Origin: an uncultured Eubacteriales bacterium
Lineage (GTDB): Bacteria; Bacillota; Clostridia; Oscillospirales; QAMX01
Length of the DNA: 64,000 bases
Direction of reading: 5' to 3'
NCBI GenBank assembly: GCA_934546935.1
Contig: CAKTEH010000008.1
Coordinates: 669-64,668, forward strand
In this document: piece after piece, positions 4,353 to 43,001 of the stretch
Numbering within the stretch: the stretch's first letter is position 1
Layout of the letters: every line of letters begins with the position of its first letter
The notes under the pieces: model-generated
Seen by the model: only the letters and a program-made list of their open reading frames with translations
The model's database searches: none
Told to the model about the DNA's origin: nothing
Made by a program: the position numbers and the translations under genes

Positions 4353-4416
4353 AAAAAAACCTCCACACATCGGGGCGTGAAGGGTTGAAAAAGGCGGCAA
4401 ACCATGCTGGCATGCC

Positions 4417-4548
4417 AAGCTTCTTCCATCCGGACTATAACCGTCGGCGCCGGACTCAAACCGGACTCAGCCGCACTGCGGCTCGCGGGCTCATGCGCAA
4501 AACGCGCCATAACCGCCGGTGGGGATTTGCGCCCCGCCCCGAAGCTAA
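4417..4548 (-). promoter_or_regulatory. FMN riboswitch (RFN element) controlling ribU
   Basis: Minus strand reads GCTTCGGGGCGGGGCGCAAATCCCCACCGGCGGTTATGG..GAGCCCGCGAGCC..GGTTTGAGTCCGGCGCCGACGGTTATAGTCCGGATGGAAGAAGC. The conserved RFN cores (GGGGCGGGG..AAATCCCCACCGGCGGT, AGCCCGCGAGC, GCCGACGGTTATAGTCCGGATGGAAGAAG) and the closing P1 GCTTC/GAAGC are all present. A GCC-TTTTT tract follows at about 4395-4410 and may belong to the expression platform. Confidence 0.9.
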
Positions 4549-4592
4549 TTAATTTCTGGTACCGGACGCACGTTGCACCGATACCGTATGTC

Positions 4593-17273: not shown

Positions 17274-17953
17274 GATTTCGGCCTCTTTCAGCTTGATTTT
17301 TGGCTGCGCTGAAAAGCACCAGCCTATACTTTCATTTTAAAGTATATTTCAGTAAAAAACAAGTGCGGCGCCAAAGATTCGCCCTGTGGCCGCACGGGGT
17401 ATTTTCCAGAATCAAATCGTGGCTGAGGTTAGCAGAAAAAAGCATGGGAAGATTTTAAATTTGCATAACACAGGCACAGAACAAAAAATTGCGGGGCCTG
17501 TATTTTTTGGCCGGTTTTATGGGTATATGAGCGGGAAACCCTCCGCTTTTTGAAGATTATATCATAGGCAAAGCACGAAATATGCAATATTGATAAATTT
17601 TACAAAAAGATTTTCAGTATTTTTAAAATGGATTCGATTTTTTTGGAATAAAATCGGGATATGTGCAGCTTTCGTCGACAAATATTGCATGAGAATTCAA
17701 ATGGTGATTATAATTTTGAAAAAAACGCGGTTATAAGCCGGAAATATAGGTGTTATAATGTAAAAAATGAATTGAAAATGCGTTGTACCTTCTTGTGCAA
17801 TATGCGTGTTCTCAATTTTCGCGGCAGCAAAAAAATCCTGTACTTTATTTCGCTGAAAGTGTATAATTTTAATGCCTGAAAAGACGCAGGAATGATAAAA
17901 AAGCAAAATCCTATCCGCGCATGACTTTGATAATATACGGGAGGAACATGCAA

Positions 17954-20581
<2,628 letters not shown>

Positions 20582-31171: not shown

Positions 31172-31527
31172 ATTTTGAAAAGATTCCCGTTATTAGAGCC
31201 TTTTCAAAGCAATTGTTCTGGACCACTCCGCTAGGGAGTCAAGGCCATACGGACAGCCGGGTCCACTGCCGCCTGGCAGCCGATGCGCTGCCTTATTGAT
31301 TGAGTTAAAAGCTCAAATTTTATAAGTTGGTTCCTTTATAACCATGTGCGCCTGTGCGCAGACTTGTGAAACGGTCAATAAGAGTAGTAAAAGTATAATT
31401 GCTATATAGACTCTGATAACCCAACTCCTTTCTGAATTCTTTTTTGCTTATCTATATGTCCCGAAACCGCGCCGGTGTCCTCCGGCTTTGCGGTGGATAG
31501 GGGCGCATACATGGATTCTGAATGGAA
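31172..31527 (+). promoter_or_regulatory. Long structured 5' leader of the polyamine operon (unclassified cis-regulatory RNA candidate)
   Basis: There is no credible ORF here. Helices visible by eye are 31174-82/31200-08, 31219-24/31260-65 (enclosing ACTCC-GCTAG-GGAGT), alternative hairpins at 31266-31292, and nested CCGC-GCCGG...CCGGC-GCGG at 31467-31493. The leader ends in the terminator at 31528-31566. Confidence 0.4.
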
Positions 31528-31566
31528 AACGCAAGGTTTGCCGGCGCGCATGCCTTGCGTTTTTTT
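31528..31566 (+). terminator. Intrinsic terminator (attenuator) immediately upstream of speA
   Basis: 9-bp stem AACGCAAGG / CCTTGCGTT (31528-36 / 31553-61) with a GC-rich loop, followed by a run of seven T (31560-31566). It lies 30-45 nt before the candidate speA start codons. Confidence 0.75.
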
Positions 31567-31596
31567 GCTTTGGAAAGGAACCGGATTTGGACAGGA

Positions 31597-33072
31597 ATGA
31601 GGATGAAGAAGATGCAGACAAGACCAAACCGGCTAGACCAGCACCGCGCGCCAATCCACGAGGCGCTGGAACGGTTCCGCCAGATGCGTGTCGTCCCTTT
31701 TGATGTGCCGGGCCATAAGCGCGGCCGCGGTAACCCGGAGCTGACCGCATTTTTGGGCCAGCAGTGCGTTGGCGTGGACGTCAACAGTATGAAGCCGTTG
31801 GATAACCTGTGCCATCCGGTGTCGGTGATCCGTGAAGCGGAGGAACTTGCAGCGGAGGCTTTTGGCGCTGCGCACGCTTTTTTGATGGTTGGCGGTACGA
31901 CCAGCTCCGTACAGAGCATGGTGCTGACCGCCTGTAAGCGCGGGGATGAGATTATCCTGCCGCGCAATGTCCACCGCAGCGTTATCAACGCGCTGGTGCT
32001 GTGCGGCGCAATACCGGTGTATGTGAATCCAGAGGTCGACCAGCAGCTTGGGATTTCTCTGGGGATGCGGCGGGAAGCTGTGGAAAAAGCAATCCGCGAG
32101 CATCCGAATGCGGTTGCCGTGCTGGTTAATAACCCGACTTACTACGGCGTTTGCTCCGATCTGCGCGCGATTGTGCGCATGGCGCATGCGGCAGGGATGC
32201 TATGCCTTGCTGATGAAGCGCATGGGACGCATTTTTATTTCGGGGGCGGGCTACCTGTGTCCGCTATGGCCGCGGGTGCGGACATGGCTTCGGTTTCCAT
32301 GCATAAAAGCGGCGGAAGCCTGACACAGTCAAGCCTGCTGCTCGTCGGTCCGAATGTACATGCAGGCTATGTGCGTCAGATTATCAATCTGACGCAGACG
32401 ACTTCGGGAAGTTACCTTTTGATGTCCAGCCTGGATATCAGCCGGCGCAATCTTGCCCTGCGGGGCCGGCAGGTATTCCACCAGGTGGCTGATATGGCGG
32501 AATATGCCCGGGAAGAAATCAATGCAGTCGGCGGTTACTATGCATTTGGAAAGGAACTGGTCGACGGCAACGCGATCTTTGATTTTGATACTACGAAGCT
32601 GAGTATTCATACCCTTGATATCGGCCTTGCGGGGATTGAGGTATATGATATCCTGCGTGATGAGTATGATATCCAGATCGAGTTTGGCGATATTGGCAAT
32701 ATTCTGGCCTATCTGTCCATAGGGGACCGGCCGCAGGAAGTTGAACGGCTTGTCAGCGCCCTTGCGGAGATCCGGCGCCGCTATCACAAGGACAGCGCGG
32801 GCCTTTTGAACCAGGAGTATTTTGACCCAGAGGTTGTTACAAGCCCACAGGAAGCGTTTTATGCGCGGAAAATCAGCCTGCCAATTGAAGAAACGCAGGG
32901 GCGTGTATGCAGCGAATTTGTCATGTGCTATCCGCCTGGGATCCCGGTGCTTGCGCCGGGGGAGCGTATTACGCAGGAAATCCTGGATTATATTGAATAT
33001 GCGAAAAACAAAGGCTGCAGCATGACCGGCCCGGAGGATCCGGAAATCCGTGCGTTGAATGTCATTGCCTGA
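31597..33072 (+). CDS. speA: Arginine decarboxylase, Orn/Lys/Arg decarboxylase fold-I family (Bacillus SpeA type)
   Basis: VVPFDVPGHKRGRGNPEL...VGGTTSSVQSM...SMHKSGGSLTQSS, with the PLP-Lys context. Three in-frame ATGs exist at 31597, 31603 and 31612. ATG 31612 (MQTRPN...) has GAGGA 8 nt upstream and may be the real start. The track start at 31522 runs through the terminator and is rejected. Confidence 0.9.
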   Translation: MRMKKMQTRPNRLDQHRAPIHEALERFRQMRVVPFDVPGHKRGRGNPELTAFLGQQCVGVDVNSMKPLDNLCHPVSVIREAEELAAEAFGAAHAFLMVGGTTSSVQSMVLTACKRGDEIILPRNVHRSVINALVLCGAIPVYVNPEVDQQLGISLGMRREAVEKAIREHPNAVAVLVNNPTYYGVCSDLRAIVRMAHAAGMLCLADEAHGTHFYFGGGLPVSAMAAGADMASVSMHKSGGSLTQSSLLLVGPNVHAGYVRQIINLTQTTSGSYLLMSSLDISRRNLALRGRQVFHQVADMAEYAREEINAVGGYYAFGKELVDGNAIFDFDTTKLSIHTLDIGLAGIEVYDILRDEYDIQIEFGDIGNILAYLSIGDRPQEVERLVSALAEIRRRYHKDSAGLLNQEYFDPEVVTSPQEAFYARKISLPIEETQGRVCSEFVMCYPPGIPVLAPGERITQEILDYIEYAKNKGCSMTGPEDPEIRALNVIA

Positions 33073-33091
33073 AGGCAGGAAGGGAAAAAAT

Positions 33092-33946
33092 ATGGAGATG
33101 TGGTTCAGTGAATTTCACACCCCGGACGTCAAACACAGCATCCGTGTAAACCGGCAGCTGTATTCCGTACAAAGTCAGTACCAGCGCATTGATATTTTCG
33201 ATACTCCGGAGTTCGGCCGCGTTCTAACGCTCGACGGAAACGTTATGTTGACTGAGCGGGATGAATTCATATATGATGAAATGATTACCCATGTCCCGAT
33301 GGCGGTCCATCCGGGAATCCGGGATATTCTTGTCATTGGTGCCGGCGACGGCGGTGTTGTGCGCGAGCTGACGCGTTACGACCGTGTTGAGCGTGTCGAC
33401 CTGGTGGAGATGGACCCGCAGGTTGTGGAAGCCTGCCGTGCCTACTTGCCCGGCAATGCCTGCCGGCTTGACGACCGGCGTGTGCATATTTATTTTGAAA
33501 ACGCGCTAAAATTTATCCGGCGCTGTGAAGCGGCGTATGACTTGATTATCGTTGATTCTACAGACCCCTTTGGTCCTTCGGAAGGACTGTTTACCCGCGA
33601 ATTTTACGGCAACTGCTACAATGCCCTGCGTGAAGATGGAATTATGGTAAACCAACAGGGAAGCCCTTTCTATTCTGAAGATGCCAAGGCGATGCAGCGC
33701 AGCCATAAGCGTATTGTCAGTACTTTCCCAATTGCACGCGTTTATCAGGCGCATATCCCGACCTATGCGGCGGGGTACTGGCTGTTTGGTTTTTCGAGTA
33801 AAAAATACCACCCGACTGATGACCTCGACGCAGCGGCGTGGAATAACCTTAACCTGCGCACACGCTATTACACAACGCGGCTGCATGCCGGTGCGTTCTG
33901 TCTTCCTGCGTTTTTAGAAGAAATGCTGAGGGAAGTGGAGGGATAA
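33092..33946 (+). CDS. speE: Spermidine synthase / aminopropyltransferase
   Basis: Start set at ATG 33092 (MEMWFSEFHTPDVKHSIRV...). QRIDIFDTPEFGRVLTLDG...ILVIGAGDGGVVRE...IIVDSTDPFGP are the SpeE signatures. Confidence 0.92.
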   Translation: MEMWFSEFHTPDVKHSIRVNRQLYSVQSQYQRIDIFDTPEFGRVLTLDGNVMLTERDEFIYDEMITHVPMAVHPGIRDILVIGAGDGGVVRELTRYDRVERVDLVEMDPQVVEACRAYLPGNACRLDDRRVHIYFENALKFIRRCEAAYDLIIVDSTDPFGPSEGLFTREFYGNCYNALREDGIMVNQQGSPFYSEDAKAMQRSHKRIVSTFPIARVYQAHIPTYAAGYWLFGFSSKKYHPTDDLDAAAWNNLNLRTRYYTTRLHAGAFCLPAFLEEMLREVEG

Positions 33947-33948
33947 AA

Positions 33949-34821
33949 ATGCTGCCGAAGAATGTTGAAACATTTATTGGCTGCGAGGCTGCGTATGACG
34001 AAGCATGTGTTGTCCTATATGGCGCGCCCTTTGATTCGACGACGAGCTTCCGGCCTGGCGCGCGTTTCGGCCCCGCTGCCATGCGGCATGAAAGCTTCGG
34101 GCTGGAAACCTATAGTCCCTATCAGGATGCAGACCTGACGGATTTCGCGGTTTTTGACAGTGGGGACATGGAGTTGTGCTTTGGCAGCGCTGAACAGGCA
34201 TTGGCAGATATTGAAGCGCGGGCGCGGACAATCCTGTCTGATGGGAAACTCCCGCTGCTGCTTGGCGGCGAGCATCTTGTGACCTTGGGCGCGGTCCGTG
34301 CCGTGGCTGCGCGATATCCTGACCTGCATATCCTGCATTTCGATGCGCATGCGGATCTTCGCGACGACTACCTTGGCGCGAAGCTGAGCCATGCCTGCGT
34401 GCTGCGGCGCTGCTATGAACTGGTTGGGGACGGCCGTATTCATCAGTTCTGTATCCGCAGCGGCGAGCGGGAAGAATTCCGTTTCGCGCAGGCGCATACC
34501 CAGATGCATCGGTTTGATTTTGACGGCCTTGAGCAAACCATAGAGGCATTGTGCGCAGCCGGTGCGCCGGTTTATCTGACGATTGATCTCGACTGCCTGG
34601 ATCCGTCCTGTTTTTCCGGAACCGGTACGCCGGAGGCCGGCGGTACCAGCTTCTGCCAGCTTCTGAAAGCAATCCTGACAGCTGCGCGGGCCCATATTGT
34701 CGGGGCGGACCTGAACGAGCTTGCGCCCATGTTAGATGCAAGCGGCGCATCCACGGCGTTGGCATGCAAGGTGCTGCGCGAGCTGCTGCTGGCGCTTTGT
34801 CTGCAAAAGGCCGTGGTATAA
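33949..34821 (+). CDS. speB: Agmatinase (ureohydrolase family)
   Basis: GAPFDSTTSFRPGARFGP...LLLGGEHLVT...ILHFDAHADLRDDY...LTIDLDCLDP are the Mn-binding ureohydrolase motifs. It starts 3 nt after the speE stop. Confidence 0.92.
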   Translation: MLPKNVETFIGCEAAYDEACVVLYGAPFDSTTSFRPGARFGPAAMRHESFGLETYSPYQDADLTDFAVFDSGDMELCFGSAEQALADIEARARTILSDGKLPLLLGGEHLVTLGAVRAVAARYPDLHILHFDAHADLRDDYLGAKLSHACVLRRCYELVGDGRIHQFCIRSGEREEFRFAQAHTQMHRFDFDGLEQTIEALCAAGAPVYLTIDLDCLDPSCFSGTGTPEAGGTSFCQLLKAILTAARAHIVGADLNELAPMLDASGASTALACKVLRELLLALCLQKAVV

Positions 34822-34840
34822 CTGCGGAAAAAGGTGAATT

Positions 34841-35719
34841 ATGAATCCGAAGGCGCTTTTAACCTATGCCAAAACGCATGCCGATACCTTCACACAGGGC
34901 GGCATATCCTCAAATTCCATTCGGTTTTTTGAATATGGAGGAAAGCGCTATGTCCTGAAGCTTCCGCTGATGACGGGAGACCGGCTTTCTCCCTTTTGGC
35001 AGATGATGAAGAATATTCTCGGCTTTACATTTGAAAAACAGTCGGAGCGGCTTGAAGCGCTTTGCCGGCGGCTTGCGGAAAATCCGCATATTAAAACCGC
35101 GCCATTTCTTGCGGCGGATCGGGACGCGATGCTTTACGGCTTTATAGAAGGAACGGCGGGCCCGGATGATCGTTTCCCGGATGCGGGGGACAATGCGTTT
35201 CGACTTGGGCAGTATATCGGGTTTAACCATGCCGTTGCCCATGCGCGCTGCGGGATGCTTGGAAAAGAGGACGTAGAAGATTTTTTCTCCGCTGCGCTGC
35301 GCCATATGGAAGCGTGTGTGCGGTGTCATTGGACGGAGGATACGCCGCTTGATGCGGCAGTGCGCGATTTTTTTGCAAAGCTGAAAACCCAGCGCCTGGA
35401 AAGCAGCCGTTATTCGCTGATTATGGGGGATATGAGCGCCGATCAGTTCCTGTTTGACAAAGACGGGCGCATCGTGGCCTGCGTCGACCTGGACGCCTAT
35501 GTGATCGCGCCGGTTGAATGGGAGCTCTCGATGCTGAAGACGCAGGTTTCCGACTGGGAAAGCTTCCAAAAAGGCTATGCCTGCTATCAGAATATGCCGG
35601 ATTTCGCCGCGATGCAGGACTTTTTCTATTTTTTGATGGCATTGAATGCCTATAACAGCAAAAACGAACTGGAAAACGATTGGGCGCCGCTTTTTACGGC
35701 ACCGTTTTTGCATACCTAA
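34841..35719 (+). CDS. Divergent protein-kinase-like / aminoglycoside-phosphotransferase-fold protein, function unknown
   Basis: GGKRYVLKLP is a beta3-Lys-like VLK. SLIMGDMSADQFLFDKDGRIVACVDLDAYVIAPVEWELS is collinear with the APH/choline-kinase catalytic loop (HxDxxxxN) and the metal-binding D motif, but His is replaced by Met and Asn by Gln. AAAGGTGA SD is present. Confidence 0.6.
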   Translation: MNPKALLTYAKTHADTFTQGGISSNSIRFFEYGGKRYVLKLPLMTGDRLSPFWQMMKNILGFTFEKQSERLEALCRRLAENPHIKTAPFLAADRDAMLYGFIEGTAGPDDRFPDAGDNAFRLGQYIGFNHAVAHARCGMLGKEDVEDFFSAALRHMEACVRCHWTEDTPLDAAVRDFFAKLKTQRLESSRYSLIMGDMSADQFLFDKDGRIVACVDLDAYVIAPVEWELSMLKTQVSDWESFQKGYACYQNMPDFAAMQDFFYFLMALNAYNSKNELENDWAPLFTAPFLHT

Positions 35720-35762
35720 ACGTCCGCAAATTGTAAAATTGAAAAAAGGAAGGGAATCATTT

Positions 35763-37022
35763 ATGAGCAAAGTACTTGTCATCGGCTGCGGCGGCGTCGC
35801 GTCCGTCGCTATCCAGAAATGCTGTCAGGCAAGCGAAGTGTTTACCGAGCTGTGCATTGCCAGCCGCACTAAATCCAAATGCGATGCGCTGGCTGAAAAG
35901 CTGGCCCCGTTGACCAAGACGAAGATTACAACCGCGCAGGTTGATGCCGACGATGTCCAGCAGTTAATCGGCCTGATCCATGCCTATCAGCCGGAGCTTG
36001 TGATGAATATTGCCTTGCCGTATCAGGATCTGACGATTATGGATGCCTGTCTTGCCTGCGGCGTCAATTATATGGATACGGCCAACTATGAGCCGGAAAA
36101 TACCGATGATCCGGCGTGGCGTGAAATATATGAAAAACGCTGCCGGGAGGAGGGGTTCTCCGCCTATTTTGATTATTCCTGGCAGTGGGCATATAAGGAG
36201 AAGTTTGAAAAAGCGGGGCTGACTGCGTTGCTGGGATGCGGTTTTGATCCCGGCGTAACACAGGCTTACTGTGCTTATGCGCAGAAACACGAGTTTGACC
36301 GCATTGATACGATTGATATCCTCGACTGCAACGGGGGCGACCATGGCTATGCTTTTGCAACCAATTTCAACCCTGAAATCAACCTGCGCGAGGTTTCTGC
36401 GCCGGGCAGCTATTGGGAAGACGGCCATTGGGTTGAGATTCCTGCAATGAGTATCAAGCGGGAATATGATTTTGATGAAGTGGGGCATAAGGATATGTAT
36501 CTGCTGCATCATGAGGAAATAGAATCGCTTGCGAAAAATATCCCGGGCGTGCGCCGGATTCGCTTCTTCATGACCTTTGGACAGAGCTACCTTGACCATA
36601 TGCGTTGCCTGGAGGACGTCGGGATGCTGTCGACTACGCCGGTTGTGTACGAGGGACGTGAAATCGTGCCGATTCAGTTTTTAAAGGCGCTTTTGCCTGA
36701 CCCGGCGACCCTTGGGCCGCGTACAAAGGGCAAGACCAATATCGGCTGTATTTTTACAGGCGTCAAGGATGGAAAAGAAAAAACCTACTGCATTTATAAT
36801 ATATGCGATCATCAGGCCTGCTACCGGGAGGTTGGTTCCCAGGCGATCAGCTACACGACCGGCGTCCCGGCCATGTGTGGTGCATTGATGCTGCTGACTG
36901 GGAAATGGAAGGCGCCGGGCGTTTATACGGTAGAGGAGTTTGACCCGGATCCCTTCCTTGATGCGCTTGACCGCTATGGTTTGCCGCGCAGTGAAAACCA
37001 TGCGCCGGTACTGGTGGACTGA
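35763..37022 (+). CDS. Carboxy(nor)spermidine dehydrogenase/synthase (saccharopine dehydrogenase family)
   Basis: Start set at ATG 35763 (MSKVLVIGCGGVASVAIQKC, a Rossmann GxGxxA). YMDTANYEP...GFDPGVTQAY...NFNPEINLRE is typical of CASDH. The track start at 35646 overlaps the previous gene. Confidence 0.88.
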   Translation: MSKVLVIGCGGVASVAIQKCCQASEVFTELCIASRTKSKCDALAEKLAPLTKTKITTAQVDADDVQQLIGLIHAYQPELVMNIALPYQDLTIMDACLACGVNYMDTANYEPENTDDPAWREIYEKRCREEGFSAYFDYSWQWAYKEKFEKAGLTALLGCGFDPGVTQAYCAYAQKHEFDRIDTIDILDCNGGDHGYAFATNFNPEINLREVSAPGSYWEDGHWVEIPAMSIKREYDFDEVGHKDMYLLHHEEIESLAKNIPGVRRIRFFMTFGQSYLDHMRCLEDVGMLSTTPVVYEGREIVPIQFLKALLPDPATLGPRTKGKTNIGCIFTGVKDGKEKTYCIYNICDHQACYREVGSQAISYTTGVPAMCGALMLLTGKWKAPGVYTVEEFDPDPFLDALDRYGLPRSENHAPVLVD

Positions 37023-38236
37023 TGCAGGGTGTTGACCTGCGCCCGCCTTTTGCGGCGCTTGCCGGGGAAAATCCCAGCTCCCTGTTTTCCAAAGTGGAAT
37101 CGCCTGCATATGTGCTGGATGCGGATGCGCTTATGCGAAACGGGGAGGTTTTAGCCGGCGTCCAGGCACGCACCGGCTGCCGGATCCTGCTTGCGCAGAA
37201 AGCGTTTTCTAACTACGACCTTTACCCCTTCCTTTCGCCGTATCTGGCCGGAACGGAAGCCAGCGGCCTGTATGAGGCGCGCCTTGGCGCGCAGCAGATG
37301 CCGGGCGGCGAGGTGCATGTTTTTTGCGCGGCCTACCGCGAAGAGGAATTTGATGAACTTTTGCATTACGCTGGGCATATTGTGTTCAATTCTCCTGCGC
37401 AGCTTGCCCGGTTCGGTGCACGGGCAAAGGCGGCAGGCAAGAGCGTCGGCCTGCGTATCAACCCCGAATGCTCCACGCAGCAGGGACATGCCATATATGA
37501 TCCCTGTGCGCCAGGCAGCCGCCTTGGCACGACGCGCGCTCAATATGACGCGGCAATGACAACGCAGCTTTTTGCGCTGCTTGACGGGCTTCATTTTCAT
37601 ACGCTCTGCGAGCAGGATGCCGATGCGCTGGAAACTACGCTTGCAGCGGTGGAAGCCAAGTTCGGGGATATTCTTCCGGCAATGCGCTGGGTGAATTTCG
37701 GCGGCGGCCATCATATTACGCGCCCCGGCTATGACCTTGCCCGCTTAGAACGCTGTATTGCGGGAATAAAATCCCGTTTTGATGTTGAAGTCTATCTCGA
37801 ACCGGGGGAGGCCTGCGCCCTAAACGCCGGGTACCTGGTCACACGCGTGTTGGATATATTGCAGAATGGCGGCATACAGATTGCAGTTTTGGATATGAGC
37901 GCAGCTTGTCATACGCCCGATGTTCTTGAAATGCCCTACCGCCCGCCCTTGTATGGCGCGGGGGAGATGGGCGAAAAACCTTATGCTTACCGGCTCGCCG
38001 GTCCGACCTGCCTTGCGGGGGACGTGGTTGGGGACTACAGTTTTGACACGCCGCTGTCGGTAGGGGATATGCTTGTGTTTGGGGATATGGCGATCTATAC
38101 CAGCTGTAAAAACAATACCTTCAACGGCATGCCGCTGCCCGCGCTTTATATGCGCCATGGGGAGGATGTAAAGCTTCTGCGCCGTTTCGGATATGAAGAT
38201 TTCTATATGCGTCTGGGCAGCCGCCGGCATCCGTGA
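37022..38236 (+). CDS. nspC: Carboxy(nor)spermidine decarboxylase (alanine-racemase-fold PLP enzyme)
   Basis: SPAYVLDADALMRN...LLAQKAFSN...GTEASGLYEARLG...NFGGGHHITRPGYD...EPGEA are the NspC/CANSDC signatures. Its ATG overlaps the upstream TGA by 1 nt. The true start could be further downstream. Confidence 0.88.
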   Translation: MQGVDLRPPFAALAGENPSSLFSKVESPAYVLDADALMRNGEVLAGVQARTGCRILLAQKAFSNYDLYPFLSPYLAGTEASGLYEARLGAQQMPGGEVHVFCAAYREEEFDELLHYAGHIVFNSPAQLARFGARAKAAGKSVGLRINPECSTQQGHAIYDPCAPGSRLGTTRAQYDAAMTTQLFALLDGLHFHTLCEQDADALETTLAAVEAKFGDILPAMRWVNFGGGHHITRPGYDLARLERCIAGIKSRFDVEVYLEPGEACALNAGYLVTRVLDILQNGGIQIAVLDMSAACHTPDVLEMPYRPPLYGAGEMGEKPYAYRLAGPTCLAGDVVGDYSFDTPLSVGDMLVFGDMAIYTSCKNNTFNGMPLPALYMRHGEDVKLLRRFGYEDFYMRLGSRRHP

Positions 38237-38344
38237 CGCGCTGTGTTTTTTTCTGATCCGGCAGCAGCGGACAGAAAAAGTCGGGAAAATGTCAGACTTT
38301 TGCGCTAAACTGTAGATACAGCGGTACAGGAAGGGATGGGCCCT

Positions 38345-39184
38345 ATGAACGGTTGGAACGAGGGGATTGCCGACGCCATTGCTTATATCGAGGAAAATTT
38401 GACACAGCAGCTGGATATTTCCCGGGTTGCAGAAAAGGCATATATGTCCAGCTTTTATTTTCAAAAAATTTTCTTTGTGCTGTGCGGTTTCACAGTAGGG
38501 GAATATATCCGGAACCGCCGTTTGACGCTGGCTGCGCAGGAACTGTGCTCCACGGACAGCCGGGTGATTGACGTCGCGTTGAAATACGGCTATGATTCGC
38601 CGGACAGCTTCAGCCGCGCATTCGCCCGTTTCCATGGTGTCAGCCCTTCTGCAGCCAGAGAAAAAGGCCGCATGCTTCATTCCTTTGCACCGCTGAAAAT
38701 CAAACTGACTTTGGAGGGCGGTACGATGCTGGAGTACAAAATTGTAGAAAAAGCACAGTTTACAGTGATGGGCAGAGCACGCAGGTTCAATACGGAAACT
38801 TCCTATAAGGAAATTCCGGCCTTCTGGACAGAACATATGAAAAGCGATCTCCATGAGGCAATCTGCGGGATGTATGGCGTATGTATAGACAGCGATGGGA
38901 AGGATTTTGAATACCTTATTGCTGATAATTACATTCCCTGGGAGGACGTTCCGGAAGGCTGCGAAACCCGGGTGATCCCTGCGGGTACCTGGGCAGTTTT
39001 TCCCTGCCGCGGTGCGCTGCCCGAGGCTTTGCAGAGTGTAAATACCAAAATTTGGAGTGAGTGGCTCCCGTCATGCAAAGCTTATGTGCTTGCAGGGAAC
39101 TATAATATCGAGATGTATGCCCCGCCGTCTTCAGACGCAGGGGTGACGTATTCGGAGATCTGGGTTCCGGTGAAAAAGGTATAA
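38345..39184 (+). CDS. AraC-family regulator with a GyrI-like effector-binding domain (intact paralogue type)
   Basis: The HTH part is IAYIEENLTQQLDISRVAEKAYMSSFYFQKIF...YGYDSPDSFSRAFARFHGVSPS. The GyrI-like C-terminus is ...YGVCIDSDGKDFEYLIADNY...NIEMYAPP. The second ATG (38345) is preferred for its SD spacing. Confidence 0.88.
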   Translation: MNGWNEGIADAIAYIEENLTQQLDISRVAEKAYMSSFYFQKIFFVLCGFTVGEYIRNRRLTLAAQELCSTDSRVIDVALKYGYDSPDSFSRAFARFHGVSPSAAREKGRMLHSFAPLKIKLTLEGGTMLEYKIVEKAQFTVMGRARRFNTETSYKEIPAFWTEHMKSDLHEAICGMYGVCIDSDGKDFEYLIADNYIPWEDVPEGCETRVIPAGTWAVFPCRGALPEALQSVNTKIWSEWLPSCKAYVLAGNYNIEMYAPPSSDAGVTYSEIWVPVKKV

Positions 39185-39194
39185 AGAAAATAGG

Positions 39195-39242
39195 AAAGGG
39201 ACGTCGGGACTGGTATTTTACCAGTCCCGGCGTCCCTTTTTT
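39195..39242. terminator. Bidirectional terminator between convergent genes
   Basis: AAAGGGACGTCGGGACTGG-TATTTTA-CCAGTCCCGGCGTCCCTTTTTT. It has a 16-bp GC-rich stem (one G.T pair), with an A-run 5' and a T-run 3'. Confidence 0.85.
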
Positions 39243-39251
39243 GAACCCGGT

Positions 39252-41837
39252 TTATTTTGCATTGATTTTTTCAATGATCTGTGCGATTTGGATATTGGAC
39301 TGTTCGATCTCCTCGTGGAATGCGCGCGCAGAAAGCCGCTGGGCGCCATGGCCGAGGATGATCAGTTGTTCCAGCCCGTCTGATGTTGCCACACGCACGC
39401 GGCGCTGCCGCCCGATTTCATACGTAGCCTTTTCTATATACATATCGGCGGTTTCCGCTTCTTTTGTATAGACAACATAGATGTTATGATACCGTTCGAC
39501 TTCGTTTATACTGCGCTGGACCTTATATGCATCGAAAACGAGGATAACTACACAGTTTTTAAAGCCCTGGTAATTGCTTAAAATATCCATCAGCGTATGC
39601 CGTGCGGCTTCGAGGTTCTGTGCCGCCAGCTTTTTCAGCTCATCCCAGGCAAACAGAATATTATAACCGTCGACCAACAGATAGTCCTGCCCCAGATCCA
39701 CTAACCGGAACTTTTCTTCTGCACGTTCCCGCGTCACCGGTTTGATGTCGAAATAGCGCCCGTTTTTAATCGGCCCGTAGGTGCGCTGGAAAATTTCCTC
39801 CAGTTCCTGATCCTCACGCAGCGTGCCGCTGTAGCGCACGGAGGGCCGGGCCGGGGTTCTCTGGGACGCAGTTTTTTCCTGATCCACATCACCTAGGCGA
39901 ACTCCGGTATCGATATGCATATAATTGCGAACCTGATCCCATTTGACCACAAACCCTGCGCCGTGGGAACAGAAAACGGAATCGGGCGTATGTTCTATAT
40001 CATGCTGCGCGTCATAGCCGATGCGGCGGATGACCTGTGCTGCATTGCCGCAGGGCTCGTAACCGCGCAGCGTAAAAGACAGCTGCCCGCGTCCCTTCGT
40101 ATAGGCGTTGAGCTCGCGTGCGTAGCCGCGCATGGCGGCAACTGGCGCAGCCCCGGTGAGGACTGTCCCATCTGCGCCGGGCTGCGGCGCGTCACAACGC
40201 CCGTTCATGTTCTGGATGTCGGTCATGGCGCGCCCAAGGTTTTCCACAGGGACAAGAATGCGGAAATCATAATAGGGCTCTAAGAGTATGCTTTCCGCCT
40301 GCATCAATCCCTGCCGTACAGCACGGTAGGTCGCCTGACGGAAGTCGCCGCCTTCGGTATGTTTCAGGTGCGCACGCCCGGCAAGCAGGGTGATGCGCAT
40401 GTCGGTAATGGGCGAACCGGTCAGTACGCCGAGATGCTCGCGCTCATACAAGTGGGTTAAGATCAGCCGCTGCCAGCTGCGGGCCAGCACATCTTCGGGA
40501 CACCGGGAGGAAAACTGCAGCCCTGTACCACGCGGCGCAGGCTCCAATAGCAGATGCACTTCTGCATAGTGGCGCAGCGGCTCGAAGTGCCCTATACCCT
40601 CAACCGGCGCGCGGATGGTTTCTTTGTAAATAATGTTTCCCGTCCCAAACCGGACTTCCAGTCCGAAACGCGCAAAGATGAGATGCTGTAAGATTTCCAG
40701 CTGGATTTCACCCATGAGCTTGACATGGATTTCCCGCAGGCGCTCGTTCCATTCGATGTGCAGCTGTGGATCTTCTTCTTCCAGTTGCCGGAGGAGGCCG
40801 AGCGCGGTGTGTGCGTCAAAACCTTCCGGAAGCAGTACTTGGTAGCTCAGTACCGGCTCGAGCATTGCAGGCGCGGATGCGGGCTGTACGCCGAGACCCT
40901 GCCCCGGCCAGGTCTTGGTAAGCCCAAGAACTGCACAGATACAGCCGGGTTCCGCTTCATCGACAGAGGCAAATTTTGTTCCGGAATAAATGCGCAGCTG
41001 GTCGGCCTTTTCTTCCCAGGGCTCGCCGTGCGCGTCAGCACCGCGCAGGATGTCCTTGACGTGCAGAACCCCGCCTGTGATTTTCATGTATGTCAGGCGT
41101 TTCCCCTGTGCATCGCGTCCGATTTTGAATACAGACGCGCCGAAATTATGCGTAGCGATGGGCGGGAGGGTATAGCGGACAAAACTGTCCAGAAATTCTT
41201 CTACGCCGTCAAGCCGCAGCGCAGAACCGAAAAAACAGGGGAATATTTGTCTTCGGCGGATCAGGGCACATATGTCTGTATCGCTAAGGCCGCCATTTTC
41301 CAGATACTGCGTAAGCGACCCCTCATCGCAAACGGCGAGATTTTCCCAAAAGGATTCGTCCCGTACGGCGTTAAAATTTATGCAGCTCTCGGAAAACTCG
41401 GCCTTAAGCTGCGCAAAGATCGTTTCCCGGTCAGCGCCAGGCAGATCCATTTTATTGATAAAAAGGAAGGTGGGGATGCTGTGCTGTGCGAGCAGTTTCC
41501 AGAGCGTACGGGTGTGTGACTGGATACCGTCCGAGGCGCTGATGACGAGTACGGCGTAGTCCAAAACCTGAAGCGTGCGCTCCATTTCGCTGGAAAAATC
41601 CACATGTCCGGGCGTGTCCAACAATGTAAACTCCGTTTCCCGGCGTCGGAGGACGGCCTGTTTGGAAAAGATTGTAATGCCGCGCTCGCGTTCGAGTGCA
41701 TAGGTATCCAGGAATGCATCCCGATGATCTACCCGGCCGAGTTTGCGGATGTTGCCGCATAGATATAAAAGCCCCTCAGAGAGGGTGGTTTTTCCCGCGT
41801 CCACGTGGGCCAGTATGCCTACAGCCAGTTTTTTCAT
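39252..41837 (-). CDS. TetM/EF-G-like translational GTPase fused to a C-terminal Rae1/YacP-type NYN ribonuclease domain
   Basis: A single 861-codon ORF. G1 is AHVDAGKT, G3 is DTPGH and G4 is NKMD. Domains II-V are collinear with ribosomal-protection/EF-G proteins (...MGEIQLEILQHLIF..., ...LEPYYDFRILVP...). The last 144 aa (39255-39686), DYLLVDGYNILFAW...VILVFDAYK...YTKEAETADMYIEK...VATSDGLEQLIILGHGAQRLSA, match YacP/Rae1 as I recall it. Confidence 0.85.
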   Translation of the reverse strand: MKKLAVGILAHVDAGKTTLSEGLLYLCGNIRKLGRVDHRDAFLDTYALERERGITIFSKQAVLRRRETEFTLLDTPGHVDFSSEMERTLQVLDYAVLVISASDGIQSHTRTLWKLLAQHSIPTFLFINKMDLPGADRETIFAQLKAEFSESCINFNAVRDESFWENLAVCDEGSLTQYLENGGLSDTDICALIRRRQIFPCFFGSALRLDGVEEFLDSFVRYTLPPIATHNFGASVFKIGRDAQGKRLTYMKITGGVLHVKDILRGADAHGEPWEEKADQLRIYSGTKFASVDEAEPGCICAVLGLTKTWPGQGLGVQPASAPAMLEPVLSYQVLLPEGFDAHTALGLLRQLEEEDPQLHIEWNERLREIHVKLMGEIQLEILQHLIFARFGLEVRFGTGNIIYKETIRAPVEGIGHFEPLRHYAEVHLLLEPAPRGTGLQFSSRCPEDVLARSWQRLILTHLYEREHLGVLTGSPITDMRITLLAGRAHLKHTEGGDFRQATYRAVRQGLMQAESILLEPYYDFRILVPVENLGRAMTDIQNMNGRCDAPQPGADGTVLTGAAPVAAMRGYARELNAYTKGRGQLSFTLRGYEPCGNAAQVIRRIGYDAQHDIEHTPDSVFCSHGAGFVVKWDQVRNYMHIDTGVRLGDVDQEKTASQRTPARPSVRYSGTLREDQELEEIFQRTYGPIKNGRYFDIKPVTRERAEEKFRLVDLGQDYLLVDGYNILFAWDELKKLAAQNLEAARHTLMDILSNYQGFKNCVVILVFDAYKVQRSINEVERYHNIYVVYTKEAETADMYIEKATYEIGRQRRVRVATSDGLEQLIILGHGAQRLSARAFHEEIEQSNIQIAQIIEKINAK

Positions 41838-41972
41838 GCTCTTTATTGGTTCCTTCCCAAATCCATTTCTATTTATTCTACCACAATTTTTGTAAAAAAG
41901 AAACGGCTTGCGGCAGGGAAGCTTGACAAATTGGGCGTTTAGAGTAAAAATAAAAATACAGGAGGGAAATAT

Positions 41973-43001
41973 ATGGAAATGCTGCGCGTATATACAGATG
42001 AAAATCTTGAGTTTTTGCTGAGTATACTGACTGCTATGGATTATGATACGCTTCTACATCAGCGTTTCGGTTTTCAAATGCTGCGTACGCAGCAGGATGC
42101 ATATATTCAGGATATCCGGACGCTTTTTGCGCCTTATCTTAAAACACCGGTTTTTGACCTTTTGCGGGATATGCTGGAAGCGGGTTTCTTTTTGGGACGT
42201 CCGATAGAGCTGATGCTGAGTCTGGCAAGTCCGGGATGCTTTACCAGTATCCGTCCGTTATCGAATCTGTGTATTTTATACAGTGGAGGAATGGAATGGA
42301 TCCATATGCTGCTTTCCGGATTAGAAGAGTTGTATGTACATTCCGGATATTCACAGTTTTTTGCCCAACATGTATCCAGGTATGCGGATTTTATATCCCG
42401 GACACAGCGTTAAGTGCAGCGTTTTCACATTGCCGAACGGCTGGAACAGGAATATGGCTGGACCTTTGGCGATGGGAAGATTCTGGTTACCGGCCTTTTG
42501 TGCGGAAATTATGGAATTCGTTTTGCTGCGGATACAGGCGTTTCAGAAGTATATGCCGTCTTTGCAGATAGTGTAATCAGCGAAGATCCGGAAGAAAATG
42601 AATTTTCTGGCGGAGCATTATCGCTGAACATGCTTTTTCATGAATTCTCCCATCCGTATATTAATCCGCTGACGGAAAAATACCATACGCTTGCCGGATC
42701 GTATGCGTCTGCGTATGAGAAACTCAGGCCGTACAAGCTTCCAGGTATGCTGTCTGGTTATGGGGACTGGGAAGAATGCATAAATGAACATTTTGTACGT
42801 GCAATGGCAATCCATCTGCTGCGCGATTGCGGGTTTGGAGATTGGGCACAGCGCTATTATGAACGGAATATGCAAGAAGGTTACCGCTATTTACCGGAGA
42901 TTTTGCAGGCCTATGAAAATTATGACCCTAGCCGTAACCTTTATCCTGATTTTGCGGCGTTTTACCCTATACTTTTAACGGTTTTTTCTGGAGATGTTTA
43001 G
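41973..43001 (+). pseudogene. HExxH metallopeptidase-like protein (possibly DUF4932-type) interrupted by an in-frame TAA
   Basis: Track ORFs 41973-42413 and 42414-43001 are in the same frame, separated only by TAA at 42411-42413. The second part starts at a GTG with no SD and carries LNMLFHEFSHPYINPL (HExxH). Alternatively these are two genes or a read-through site. Confidence 0.5.

Follow-up and report, generated by a model that had tools for sequence, protein, structure and literature searches.

Architecture and reality of the fusion

Why should a bacterium join a translational GTPase to an endoribonuclease in a single polypeptide? The question is raised by a gene in a 64,000-nucleotide stretch of DNA (hereafter the window) from an uncultured bacterium of the Eubacteriales (Clostridia; Oscillospirales; GenBank assembly GCA_934546935.1, contig CAKTEH010000008.1). 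The gene occupies 39252..41837 on the minus strand, and the original prediction, made from the sequence without database searches, had taken it for one unbroken 861-codon open reading frame (ORF) combining a TetM/EF-G-like GTPase with a Rae1/YacP-type nuclease. The ORF is indeed intact: the ORF list gives a complete coding sequence of 861 amino acids (aa) plus stop, and its N-terminus, MKKLAVGILAHVDAGKT, matches both the starts of its homologs and that of TetO. The architecture itself is not new. In ten Clostridiales species Atkinson (BMC Genomics 2015, PMC4342817) saw that proteins of the Tet subfamily had gained a YacP-like NYN domain, and named a possible rRNA RNase activity of these fusions as a thing to test, while Matelska et al. 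(NAR 2017, PMC5499597) described fusions of the TetM-like/NYN_YacP type from some Clostridia, with a role that they considered unclear. New here are a GTPase subfamily apart from the Tet proteins, its unfused form in Lactobacillaceae, the wide spread of the fusion, and, in view of the Rae1 work of 2025-2026, a practical route to trapping a Rae1 domain on the ribosome.

The N-terminal 641 residues are identified by sequence comparison as a five-domain translational GTPase of the EF-G/Tet superfamily. Pfam recognizes in order, always above the gathering cut-off and all on the minus strand, a G domain with a short G' insert (aa 1-223, 41169..41837; GTP_EFTU at aa 4-223, E 1.9e-51), domain II (aa 232-308, 40914..41144; EF-G_D2, 29.3 bits against a cut-off of 27, modelled at a predicted local distance difference test score (pLDDT) of 80-93), domain III (aa 328-398, 40644..40856; EFG_III, 27.9 bits against 27), domain IV (aa 401-514, 40296..40637; EFG_IV, E 8.4e-18) and domain V (aa 518-599, 40041..40286; EFG_C, E 1.6e-18). 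The motifs quoted in the original prediction stand where it had placed them, AHVDAGKT (10-17) being G1, DTPGH (74-78) G3 and NKMD (128-131) G4, and they are complemented by RGITI as G2 and GSAL as G5. In an alignment of 70 family members, 40-85% identical to the query, the G1-G5 motifs are kept in 58-70 members and the catalytic His78 in 69. The complete set of G motifs and the catalytic histidine, followed by domains II-V in order, places the protein in the translational GTPase superfamily (EF-G/EF2 family). The GTPase body is confidently modelled by AlphaFold, and the top Foldseek matches of the whole-protein model are EF-G structures, with an E of 8e-51 to ribosome-bound EF-G. A minority of relatives (P0187, P0189, P0190, P0212 and the Ligilactobacillus salivarius protein at locus L086) shows Asn, Asp or Pro in place of the G1 histidine (ANVD, ADVD, APVD), the P-loop being otherwise intact.

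The C-terminal domain (aa 718-861, 39255..39686, minus strand) was identified as an NYN endoribonuclease of the Rae1/YacP type. The original prediction had aligned the last 144 aa almost residue for residue with YacP/Rae1, with the acidic positions kept, and had proposed a profile search, in which residues 720-859 matched NYN_YacP (PF05991) with 164.2 bits against a gathering cut-off of 24.6 (E 3.5e-48). Residues 718-859 align with positions 2-143 of Bacillus subtilis Rae1/YacP (PDB 5MQ8/5MQ9) at 41.8% identity (E 1.6e-25) with only two one-residue gaps. The motifs LLVDGYN (720-726), VFDA (767-770), ETAD (795-798) and ATSD (817-820) contain the catalytic aspartates D723, D769, D798 and D820, which pair with D7, D53, D81 and D104 of Rae1 and are each present in 70 of the 70 aligned members, whose overall identity is only 40-74%; D723 and D798 correspond to the two positions of the published catalytic mutant of Rae1, D7N D81N (PMC10351889). 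A first full-length AlphaFold model gave the NYN domain a pLDDT of 50-66, a weakness resolved by modelling the C-terminal part alone on a deeper alignment of 65 sequences, in which the domain reaches 81-96 and superimposes on 5MQ9 with a template-modelling (TM) score of 0.79 and a root-mean-square deviation of 1.6 A over 145 columns. The next-best Foldseek match of this model has an E of 7.7e-3, and no other fold comes close. By sequence and modelled fold, then, this is an orthologue-grade match to Rae1 with its active-site residues intact. The likeness to free Rae1 thus extends over the NYN fold, the identity and the four active-site aspartates; the setting differs, in that B. subtilis Rae1, ~170 aa long and free, has its gene in the cysS-mrnC-rlmB-yacP-sigH region, whereas here the nuclease is tethered to a 641-aa GTPase encoded by a solitary gene elsewhere. 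Neighbours of the mrnC-rlmB-yacP-sigH type are found neither in the window nor at the 85 loci of the fusion.

The fusion recurs so widely that its reality is not in question. In two protein searches all 120 matches listed in each were full-length proteins, 57-100% identical, in which PF05991 completes the same set of six Pfam domains. With residues 601-861 as query, an exhaustive search without a profile returned 3120 cluster representatives at E<=1e-3; among the best 150 of these, 59 are full-length, measure 815-1156 aa and begin with a translational GTPase, and most of the others are fragments. The short NYN matches from this search proved to be fragments or truncated calls of fusion genes and not stand-alone rae1 genes. 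A scan with one genome per species yielded at least 80 loci, every one covering the whole protein, with carriers including Faecalibacterium, Intestinimonas, Flavonifractor, Dysosmobacter, Lawsonibacter, Ruminococcus, Blautia, Dorea, Herbinix, Robinsoniella, Anaerobutyricum, Acetatifactor, Acutalibacteraceae, Anaerovorax and Fusibacter, among others. Across Oscillospiraceae, Lachnospiraceae and other Clostridia the NYN domain lies inside a single long ORF at 85 of 85 loci, with no split or frameshift. The original prediction had wished to see a mis-join excluded and the conservation of the fusion examined; an artefact of assembly or frameshift can be rejected, given the intact ORF at all these loci and hundreds of independent protein clusters. 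Both active sites are under strong purifying selection, and the fusion is ancient, widespread in Clostridia and far more so than the ten species noted in 2015 would indicate. In a plasmid collection, whose genome records are partial, Monoglobus and Agathobacter gave one NYN match each, in both cases the fusion itself. A Clostridia-type fusion gene (53-56% identity) is also present on contigs labelled Alloprevotella sp. (Bacteroidota; L060) and Thermoflexaceae (Chloroflexota; L063), which are probably mis-binned contigs of metagenome-assembled genomes and not true occurrences outside Bacillota.

A GTPase subfamily apart from the Tet proteins and EF-G

The GTPase half had been described in the original prediction as TetM/EF-G-like; that it is a protection protein of the TetM type does not stand up to closer comparison. 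The best NCBIfam model is tet_protect, but the protein scores 398.8 bits against an equivalog cut-off of 775, about half; the TetM/W/O/S model gives 274.6 bits against 1100, and every specific Tet model is far missed. Nor does it pass as EF-G proper, the NCBIfam/TIGR models for which give 317 bits against 583 and 266 against 659. By sequence TetO (the best PDB match), EF-G and TetM are nearly equidistant from it, at 248, 246 and 234 bits, and the GTPase half is 30% identical to TetO, as against 50% to its own unfused subfamily.

With TetM and TetO it shares the five-domain layout and the short G' insert, and TetO aligns in a single stretch over residues 1-596, while EF-G aligns in two stretches because the G' subdomain of the fusion protein is shorter. 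Unlike those proteins it lacks their YYSPV motif, is encoded on chromosomes instead of conjugative elements and has a nuclease attached. EF-G is the best structural match for the GTPase body and shares with it the intact G motifs and a histidine at the domain IV tip; in the structural alignments, however, the identity is ~24%, and the GGRGQ insertion of EF-G loop I is absent, a shortened loop with FEPLRHY standing in its place.

In both EF-G and TetM domain IV reaches the decoding centre, and it is in the loops at its tip that the subfamily is most distinctive. Loop I carries the near-invariant signature GHFEPLRHYAEV (aa 416-427, 40557..40592, minus strand), in which G416, H417, E419, P420, L421, H423 and E426 are each found in 70 of 70 aligned members; the signature recurs in 115 of 116 unfused relatives and is lacking in TetO. 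The second tip loop, at the position of loop III in TetM/TetO and of the His-loop in EF-G, reads G-R-A-H490-L-K492-H493-T494-E-G-G-D498-F499 (aa 487-499, 40341..40379, minus strand), with H493 and D498 present in all 70 members, K492 and T494 in 67 and H490 in 65. Here Y506-Y507-S508-P509-V510 of TetO, a motif that in TetM/TetO loop III reportedly contacts the drug site (cryo-EM; Donhofer 2012, Arenz 2015), aligns with A489-H490-L491-K492-H493, and the replacement is itself conserved in the family. H490 aligns, in an ungapped block, with the conserved domain IV tip histidine of EF-G (H573 in Thermus thermophilus, H583 in Escherichia coli). Since the tip loops are both near-invariant and specific to the subfamily, the GTPase is unlikely to be a passive anchor for the nuclease.

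The divergence appears to continue beyond domain V. The HMMER alignment to TetO ends at query residue 596 (TetO 613), and the next 45 query residues form a distinct, subfamily-specific block, the direct comparison with TetO extending to its residue 613. We define the subfamily by three signatures, GHFEPLRHY(A/S)EV and H(T/S)xGGDF at the tip and S(V/I)FCxHGAG..V.W in the C-terminal block. The window protein has all three. Searched as strict patterns, the signatures are borne by 42-53 of 59 diverse fused members; 115-116 of 116 unfused ones have them, and TetO does not. On this sequence evidence the GTPase half belongs to a translational GTPase subfamily distinct from the tetracycline-protection proteins, with a domain IV tip and a C-terminal extension of its own.

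Public annotation of fused and unfused members is inconsistent, ranging over 'TetM/TetW/TetO/TetS family tetracycline resistance ribosomal protection protein', 'Tetracycline resistance protein TetM from transposon Tn916', 'elongation factor G', 'GTP-binding protein' and 'NYN domain-containing protein'. The TetM-family label that is widely and automatically applied to the fused proteins and to the unfused proteins of Lactobacillaceae is unsupported by their sequences; hence resistome counts are probably inflated, and surveys of gut Clostridia and food lactobacilli for resistance genes may record false positives on account of the label.

Extension, tether and unfused relatives

Between domain V and the nuclease the original prediction had placed a plain linker of about 65 aa. 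A disordered tether does exist, but the region as a whole is no simple spacer, since it comprises an extension of the GTPase, the tether proper and a conserved helix within the latter. The extension (aa 600-641, 39915..40040, minus strand) has the pattern Y608..D613..S620-V-F622-C623-x-H-G626-A-G..V-x-W633, in which S620, F622, C623 and G626 are each conserved in 70 of 70 members and Y608 in 69, H625, V631 and W633 also belonging to the block. In the deeper C-terminal model it is predicted as a helix, a beta-hairpin and a second helix at a pLDDT of 61-71. All of the 116 unfused relatives have it, and as the 644-aa L. salivarius protein ends in this same SVFCSHGAG..V.W block, it represents the native C-terminus of the GTPase and not part of a linker.

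The tether that follows (aa 642-717, ~76 aa; 39687..39914, minus strand) varies in length and sequence and is predicted to be disordered, with a pLDDT below 55 outside its helix. In the family its length ranges from 61 to 191 aa (median 81), with balanced charge; in P0157 (1156 aa), P0167 (1069 aa) and P0203 (1002 aa) it is expanded by up to ~150 residues. Most relatives further possess a tail of 19-33 residues beyond the nuclease, where the window protein has none. Embedded in it, as seen in both the alignment and the model, is a conserved amphipathic helix, E678-L-x-x-I682-F-x-R-T-Y-G688 (aa 673-688, 39774..39821, minus strand), with E678 kept in 62 of 70 members, I682 in 67, and L679, T686 and G688 in 61 each; residues 673-687 are modelled at a pLDDT of ~82.

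A translated search of plasmid records recovered from L. salivarius megaplasmids a 644-aa protein (WP_324177469.1) that is 50% identical to residues 1-643 and shares the tip-loop signatures and the SVFCSHGAG extension with the GTPase of the fusion. Such unfused proteins, of ~640-665 aa, are widespread and chromosomal in Companilactobacillus, Levilactobacillus, Paucilactobacillus, Pediococcus and Lactiplantibacillus fabifermentans, where they are annotated as EF-G, TetM family, GTP-binding protein or translation factor GTPase family protein. They differ from the fusion in stopping where the tether begins, without an NYN domain, and at the loci examined the unfused GTPase genes have neither a conserved neighbour nor an NYN gene adjacent to them. 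Judged by their sequences these proteins are the true sister group of the GTPase half of the fusion. In a neighbor-joining tree rooted on TetO, fused and unfused members fall together on a long branch, with the unfused ones as a single clade within the fused lineages. This nesting hints at loss of the nuclease in the unfused clade, but the tree is crude and carries no support values. At L086 (5402-7920 on megaplasmid NZ_CP117984.1) the unfused gene is divergent to a second copy of rpsN, for ribosomal protein S14, and to a tiny gene for a 'putative metal homeostasis protein', with transposases on the flanks.

Proposed function and its rivals

What, then, might such a protein do? We propose, with about even confidence, that it is a GTP-gated ribosome-surveillance factor by which a Rae1 nuclease is tethered to ribosomes that have stalled or collided. 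Its GTP form would, judging from its homologs EF-G and TetM, dock at the ribosomal factor-binding site; domain IV, with its invariant positively charged tip, would insert toward the decoding centre and probe the decoding region, and the disordered tether of ~60-190 residues would keep the Rae1-type NYN nuclease near the docked ribosome. On a stall the nuclease would cut the ribosome-associated mRNA, probably at or near the collision interface as free Rae1 does; the truncated mRNA would lead to rescue of the ribosome by transfer-messenger RNA (tmRNA), and GTP hydrolysis would release the factor. Docking and RNA cleavage are, as predicted steps, well founded in homology; the mRNA substrate, suggested by the relationship to Rae1, and the stalled or collided ribosome as trigger are what we infer.

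The original prediction had treated cleavage in the ribosomal A site by Rae1 as established. This is out of date: the premise was revised in 2025 and withdrawn by the group that had proposed it (Deves et al. being among the later work on Rae1), so that delivery of an A-site nuclease is no longer the natural reading of the fusion. The broader idea of that prediction, a nuclease of the ribosome brought in under GTP control for the sake of quality control, is still the one we favour. According to a 2026 preprint (PMC13622287) Rae1 and tmRNA rescue collided ribosomes, and the 12-nt spacing fits a contact with the trailing ribosome; the transience of the association is the reason why no structure of ribosome-bound Rae1 is available, and the means by which Rae1 singles out ribosomes that have stalled or collided are still sought. 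The cut made by free Rae1 falls at the tail of the leading ribosome, which in a disome lies against the side where mRNA enters the trailing one. If the fusion cuts at the same site, a tether with a typical reach of ~75 A would fit a GTPase on the trailing ribosome better than one on the stalled ribosome, and we speculate that the GTPase may sit on the trailing ribosome, whose factor site and mRNA entry side are both turned toward that tail. The occurrence of the fusion as a solitary chromosomal gene in at least 80 reference species of Clostridia is as expected of a housekeeping or quality-control factor.

Known systems offer functional analogues. In Pelota-Hbs1 a translational GTPase and an A-site probe work together in the rescue of stalled ribosomes. 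The nucleases SmrB of E. coli and Cue2 of eukaryotes trigger rescue by cutting mRNA where ribosomes have collided (PMC13622287). The resemblance of the fusion to SmrB, Cue2/NONU-1 and Pelota-Hbs1 is one of function only, the SMR and NYN folds being unrelated, and none of these systems covalently joins a nuclease to a translational GTPase as the fusion does.

Several observations count against a surveillance role. Our full-text literature search found no functional study of any member of the fusion family, in keeping with the original prediction, which knew of no characterised example. An all-against-all comparison of the ORFs within 4 kb of the fusion at 85 loci disclosed no conserved neighbour among rescue genes (tmRNA, smpB and the like) and indeed no conserved operon partner of any kind, the best being a MatE transporter at 14 of 85 loci, in no fixed position or orientation, followed by ABC ATPases at 11. 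The last ~25 positions of the NYN_YacP model are unmatched in the window protein and many relatives (1-142 of 166 matched), and the ribosome contacts may therefore differ from those of free Rae1. The unfused Lactobacillaceae proteins exist without an attached nuclease, and hence the GTPase can function without one being covalently joined to it. Whether genomes with the fusion keep a stand-alone rae1 also matters, as it bears on replacement as against addition. Finally, the estimate of tether reach is drawn from general polymer figures and ribosome dimensions and not from a docked model.

A further difficulty is that the substrate could be rRNA or tRNA, in which case the fusion would serve in the inactivation or recycling of damaged or hibernating ribosomes, or in rRNA maturation. 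We regard this as unlikely, if conceivable. It comes close to the suggestion made by Atkinson in 2015, the tether would reach many rRNA surfaces, and the operon context of yacP in Firmicutes, with mrnC and rlmB, first pointed to rRNA or tRNA processing (PMC5499597). All experimentally defined substrates of Rae1 are mRNAs, cut in dependence on translation, and the 42% identity to Rae1 together with the near-identical fold argues for the same class of substrate. Moreover, an rRNA nuclease expressed constitutively in the majority of gut Clostridia would have to be tightly controlled, and a conserved inhibitor or partner gene is lacking nearby.

That the GTPase is instead an antibiotic-resistance factor of the ribosomal protection type, dislodging tetracycline or another A-site drug with the nuclease as an accessory, corresponds to a frequent NCBI annotation but appears quite improbable. 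In its favour one could cite tet_protect as the best NCBIfam model and TetO as the best PDB match, the placement of the fusions in the Tet subfamily by Atkinson (PMC4342817), the presence in some loci of an AraC/GyrI-like regulator of a drug-sensing type or of a MatE or TetR gene, and the ties of Rae1 to antibiotic responses, namely to bmrCD and to erythromycin-induced collisions (PMC13622287, PMC10351889). Yet the score is half of that required for tet_protect, the protein is about as close to EF-G as to TetO, YYSPV is replaced by AHLKH, and its C-terminus appears unrelated to the visible start of the TetO C-terminal region. The association with MatE is weak, and the 85 loci are chromosomal and devoid of any mobile-element context, unlike those of tet(M), tet(O) and tet(W). 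The literature on novel protection genes put to experimental test (Berglund 2020), like that on megaplasmids of L. salivarius, yielded nothing on the fusion family, and our literature search found no report of tetracycline resistance conferred by one of its members.

A translation shut-off toxin, triggered by stress or phage and degrading mRNA on ribosomes globally as an abortive-infection or dormancy effector, is very unlikely, for although the gene is a solitary unit and defence systems often contain nucleases fused with sensor NTPases, no PADLOC model was matched in the window, there is no defence-island, antitoxin or mobile-element context, and vertical Clostridia-wide conservation, purifying selection and partial synteny are atypical of defence genes.

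Returning to the proposed surveillance factor, a more general and doubtful extension would be that a dedicated EF-G-like sensor GTPase brings Rae1-type nucleases to stalled or collided ribosomes via the factor site, being covalently joined to the nuclease in Clostridia and separate from it in Lactobacillaceae, where it might act with free Rae1, the invariant tip reading the state of the A site and GTP hydrolysis licensing or timing the cut. If true, the fusion would be a 'Rosetta stone' for a branch of ribosome quality control in bacteria that depends on a GTPase and has gone unrecognised. It could also show how Rae1 nucleases reach stalled ribosomes, for the fusion could be trapped with a non-hydrolysable GTP analogue or a His78 mutant, making the position of the Rae1 domain on the ribosome observable. 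Carriers include abundant Clostridia of the human and animal gut (Faecalibacterium, Blautia, Dorea, Ruminococcus, Flavonifractor), and thus any role of the family in translation quality control or antibiotic tolerance would matter for gut microbiology.

Expression signals and genomic neighbourhood

The original prediction had the gene standing alone, with its own extended -10 element and a strong terminator, and we could locate both signals and find the gene solitary. The extended -10 element, TGgTAGAAT (41875..41883, minus strand), was recognized by reading the sequence ~38 nt before the ATG and has no good -35 element. A bidirectional intrinsic terminator (39181..39240), common to the fusion gene and to a convergent regulator gene, lies directly 3' of the fusion stop codon and consists of an A-tract, a ~20-bp GC-rich hairpin and a T-tract; in RNA folding the hairpin has a free energy of -37.5 kcal/mol and a z-score of -6.71, none of 200 shuffled sequences being equally stable. 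A consensus promoter/terminator scanner missed both signals at this locus, which were found by reading and folding the sequence; in the case of the extended -10 element this is because the scanner requires a -35 element. An Rfam scan gave no match in the ~38-nt leader, which is too short to leave room for an attenuator.

The convergent gene (38336-39184, plus strand) encodes a regulator with an AraC-type helix-turn-helix and a GyrI-like/Cass2 effector-binding domain. A 71%-identical homolog of the fusion (L003/L004) is flanked by the same type of regulator and a MatE transporter, and in L001/L002 TetR and MatE genes lie upstream. This neighbourhood of AraC/GyrI-like regulator and MatE is at most a weak hint of a link to drug responses. 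On the other side, a gene of the DUF4932 family (41973-43001, plus strand) is divergent from the fusion gene and interrupted by an in-frame TAA at 42411-42413; as its halves, 41973-42413 and 42414-43001, are in the same frame, it is either a pseudogene or a sequencing error.

The window is otherwise an ordinary piece of Clostridia chromosome, with genes for pyruvate-phosphate dikinase, pyruvate:ferredoxin oxidoreductase, RecD2, a penicillin-binding protein and glycoside hydrolases, and a polyamine cluster; it holds no tRNA or tmRNA gene and no second NYN or translational GTPase gene. The polyamine cluster (31522-38236, plus strand) is headed by an ornithine/lysine/arginine decarboxylase, upstream of which lies an SpF59/ldcC RNA motif (RF02440, 66 bits; 31220-31272, plus strand), and ends in saccharopine-dehydrogenase-like and ornithine/diaminopimelate/arginine-decarboxylase-like genes, which are probably a carboxynorspermidine dehydrogenase and decarboxylase. 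A flavin mononucleotide (FMN) riboswitch (Rfam RF00050, 100 bits) is located at 4414-4550 on the minus strand. The pyruvate-phosphate dikinase gene (17921-20581, plus strand) is no more than ~20 kb away from the fusion gene, and in two relatives (L003/L004; L009) the distance is a few kb at most, which suggests partial synteny among Oscillospiraceae-like genomes.

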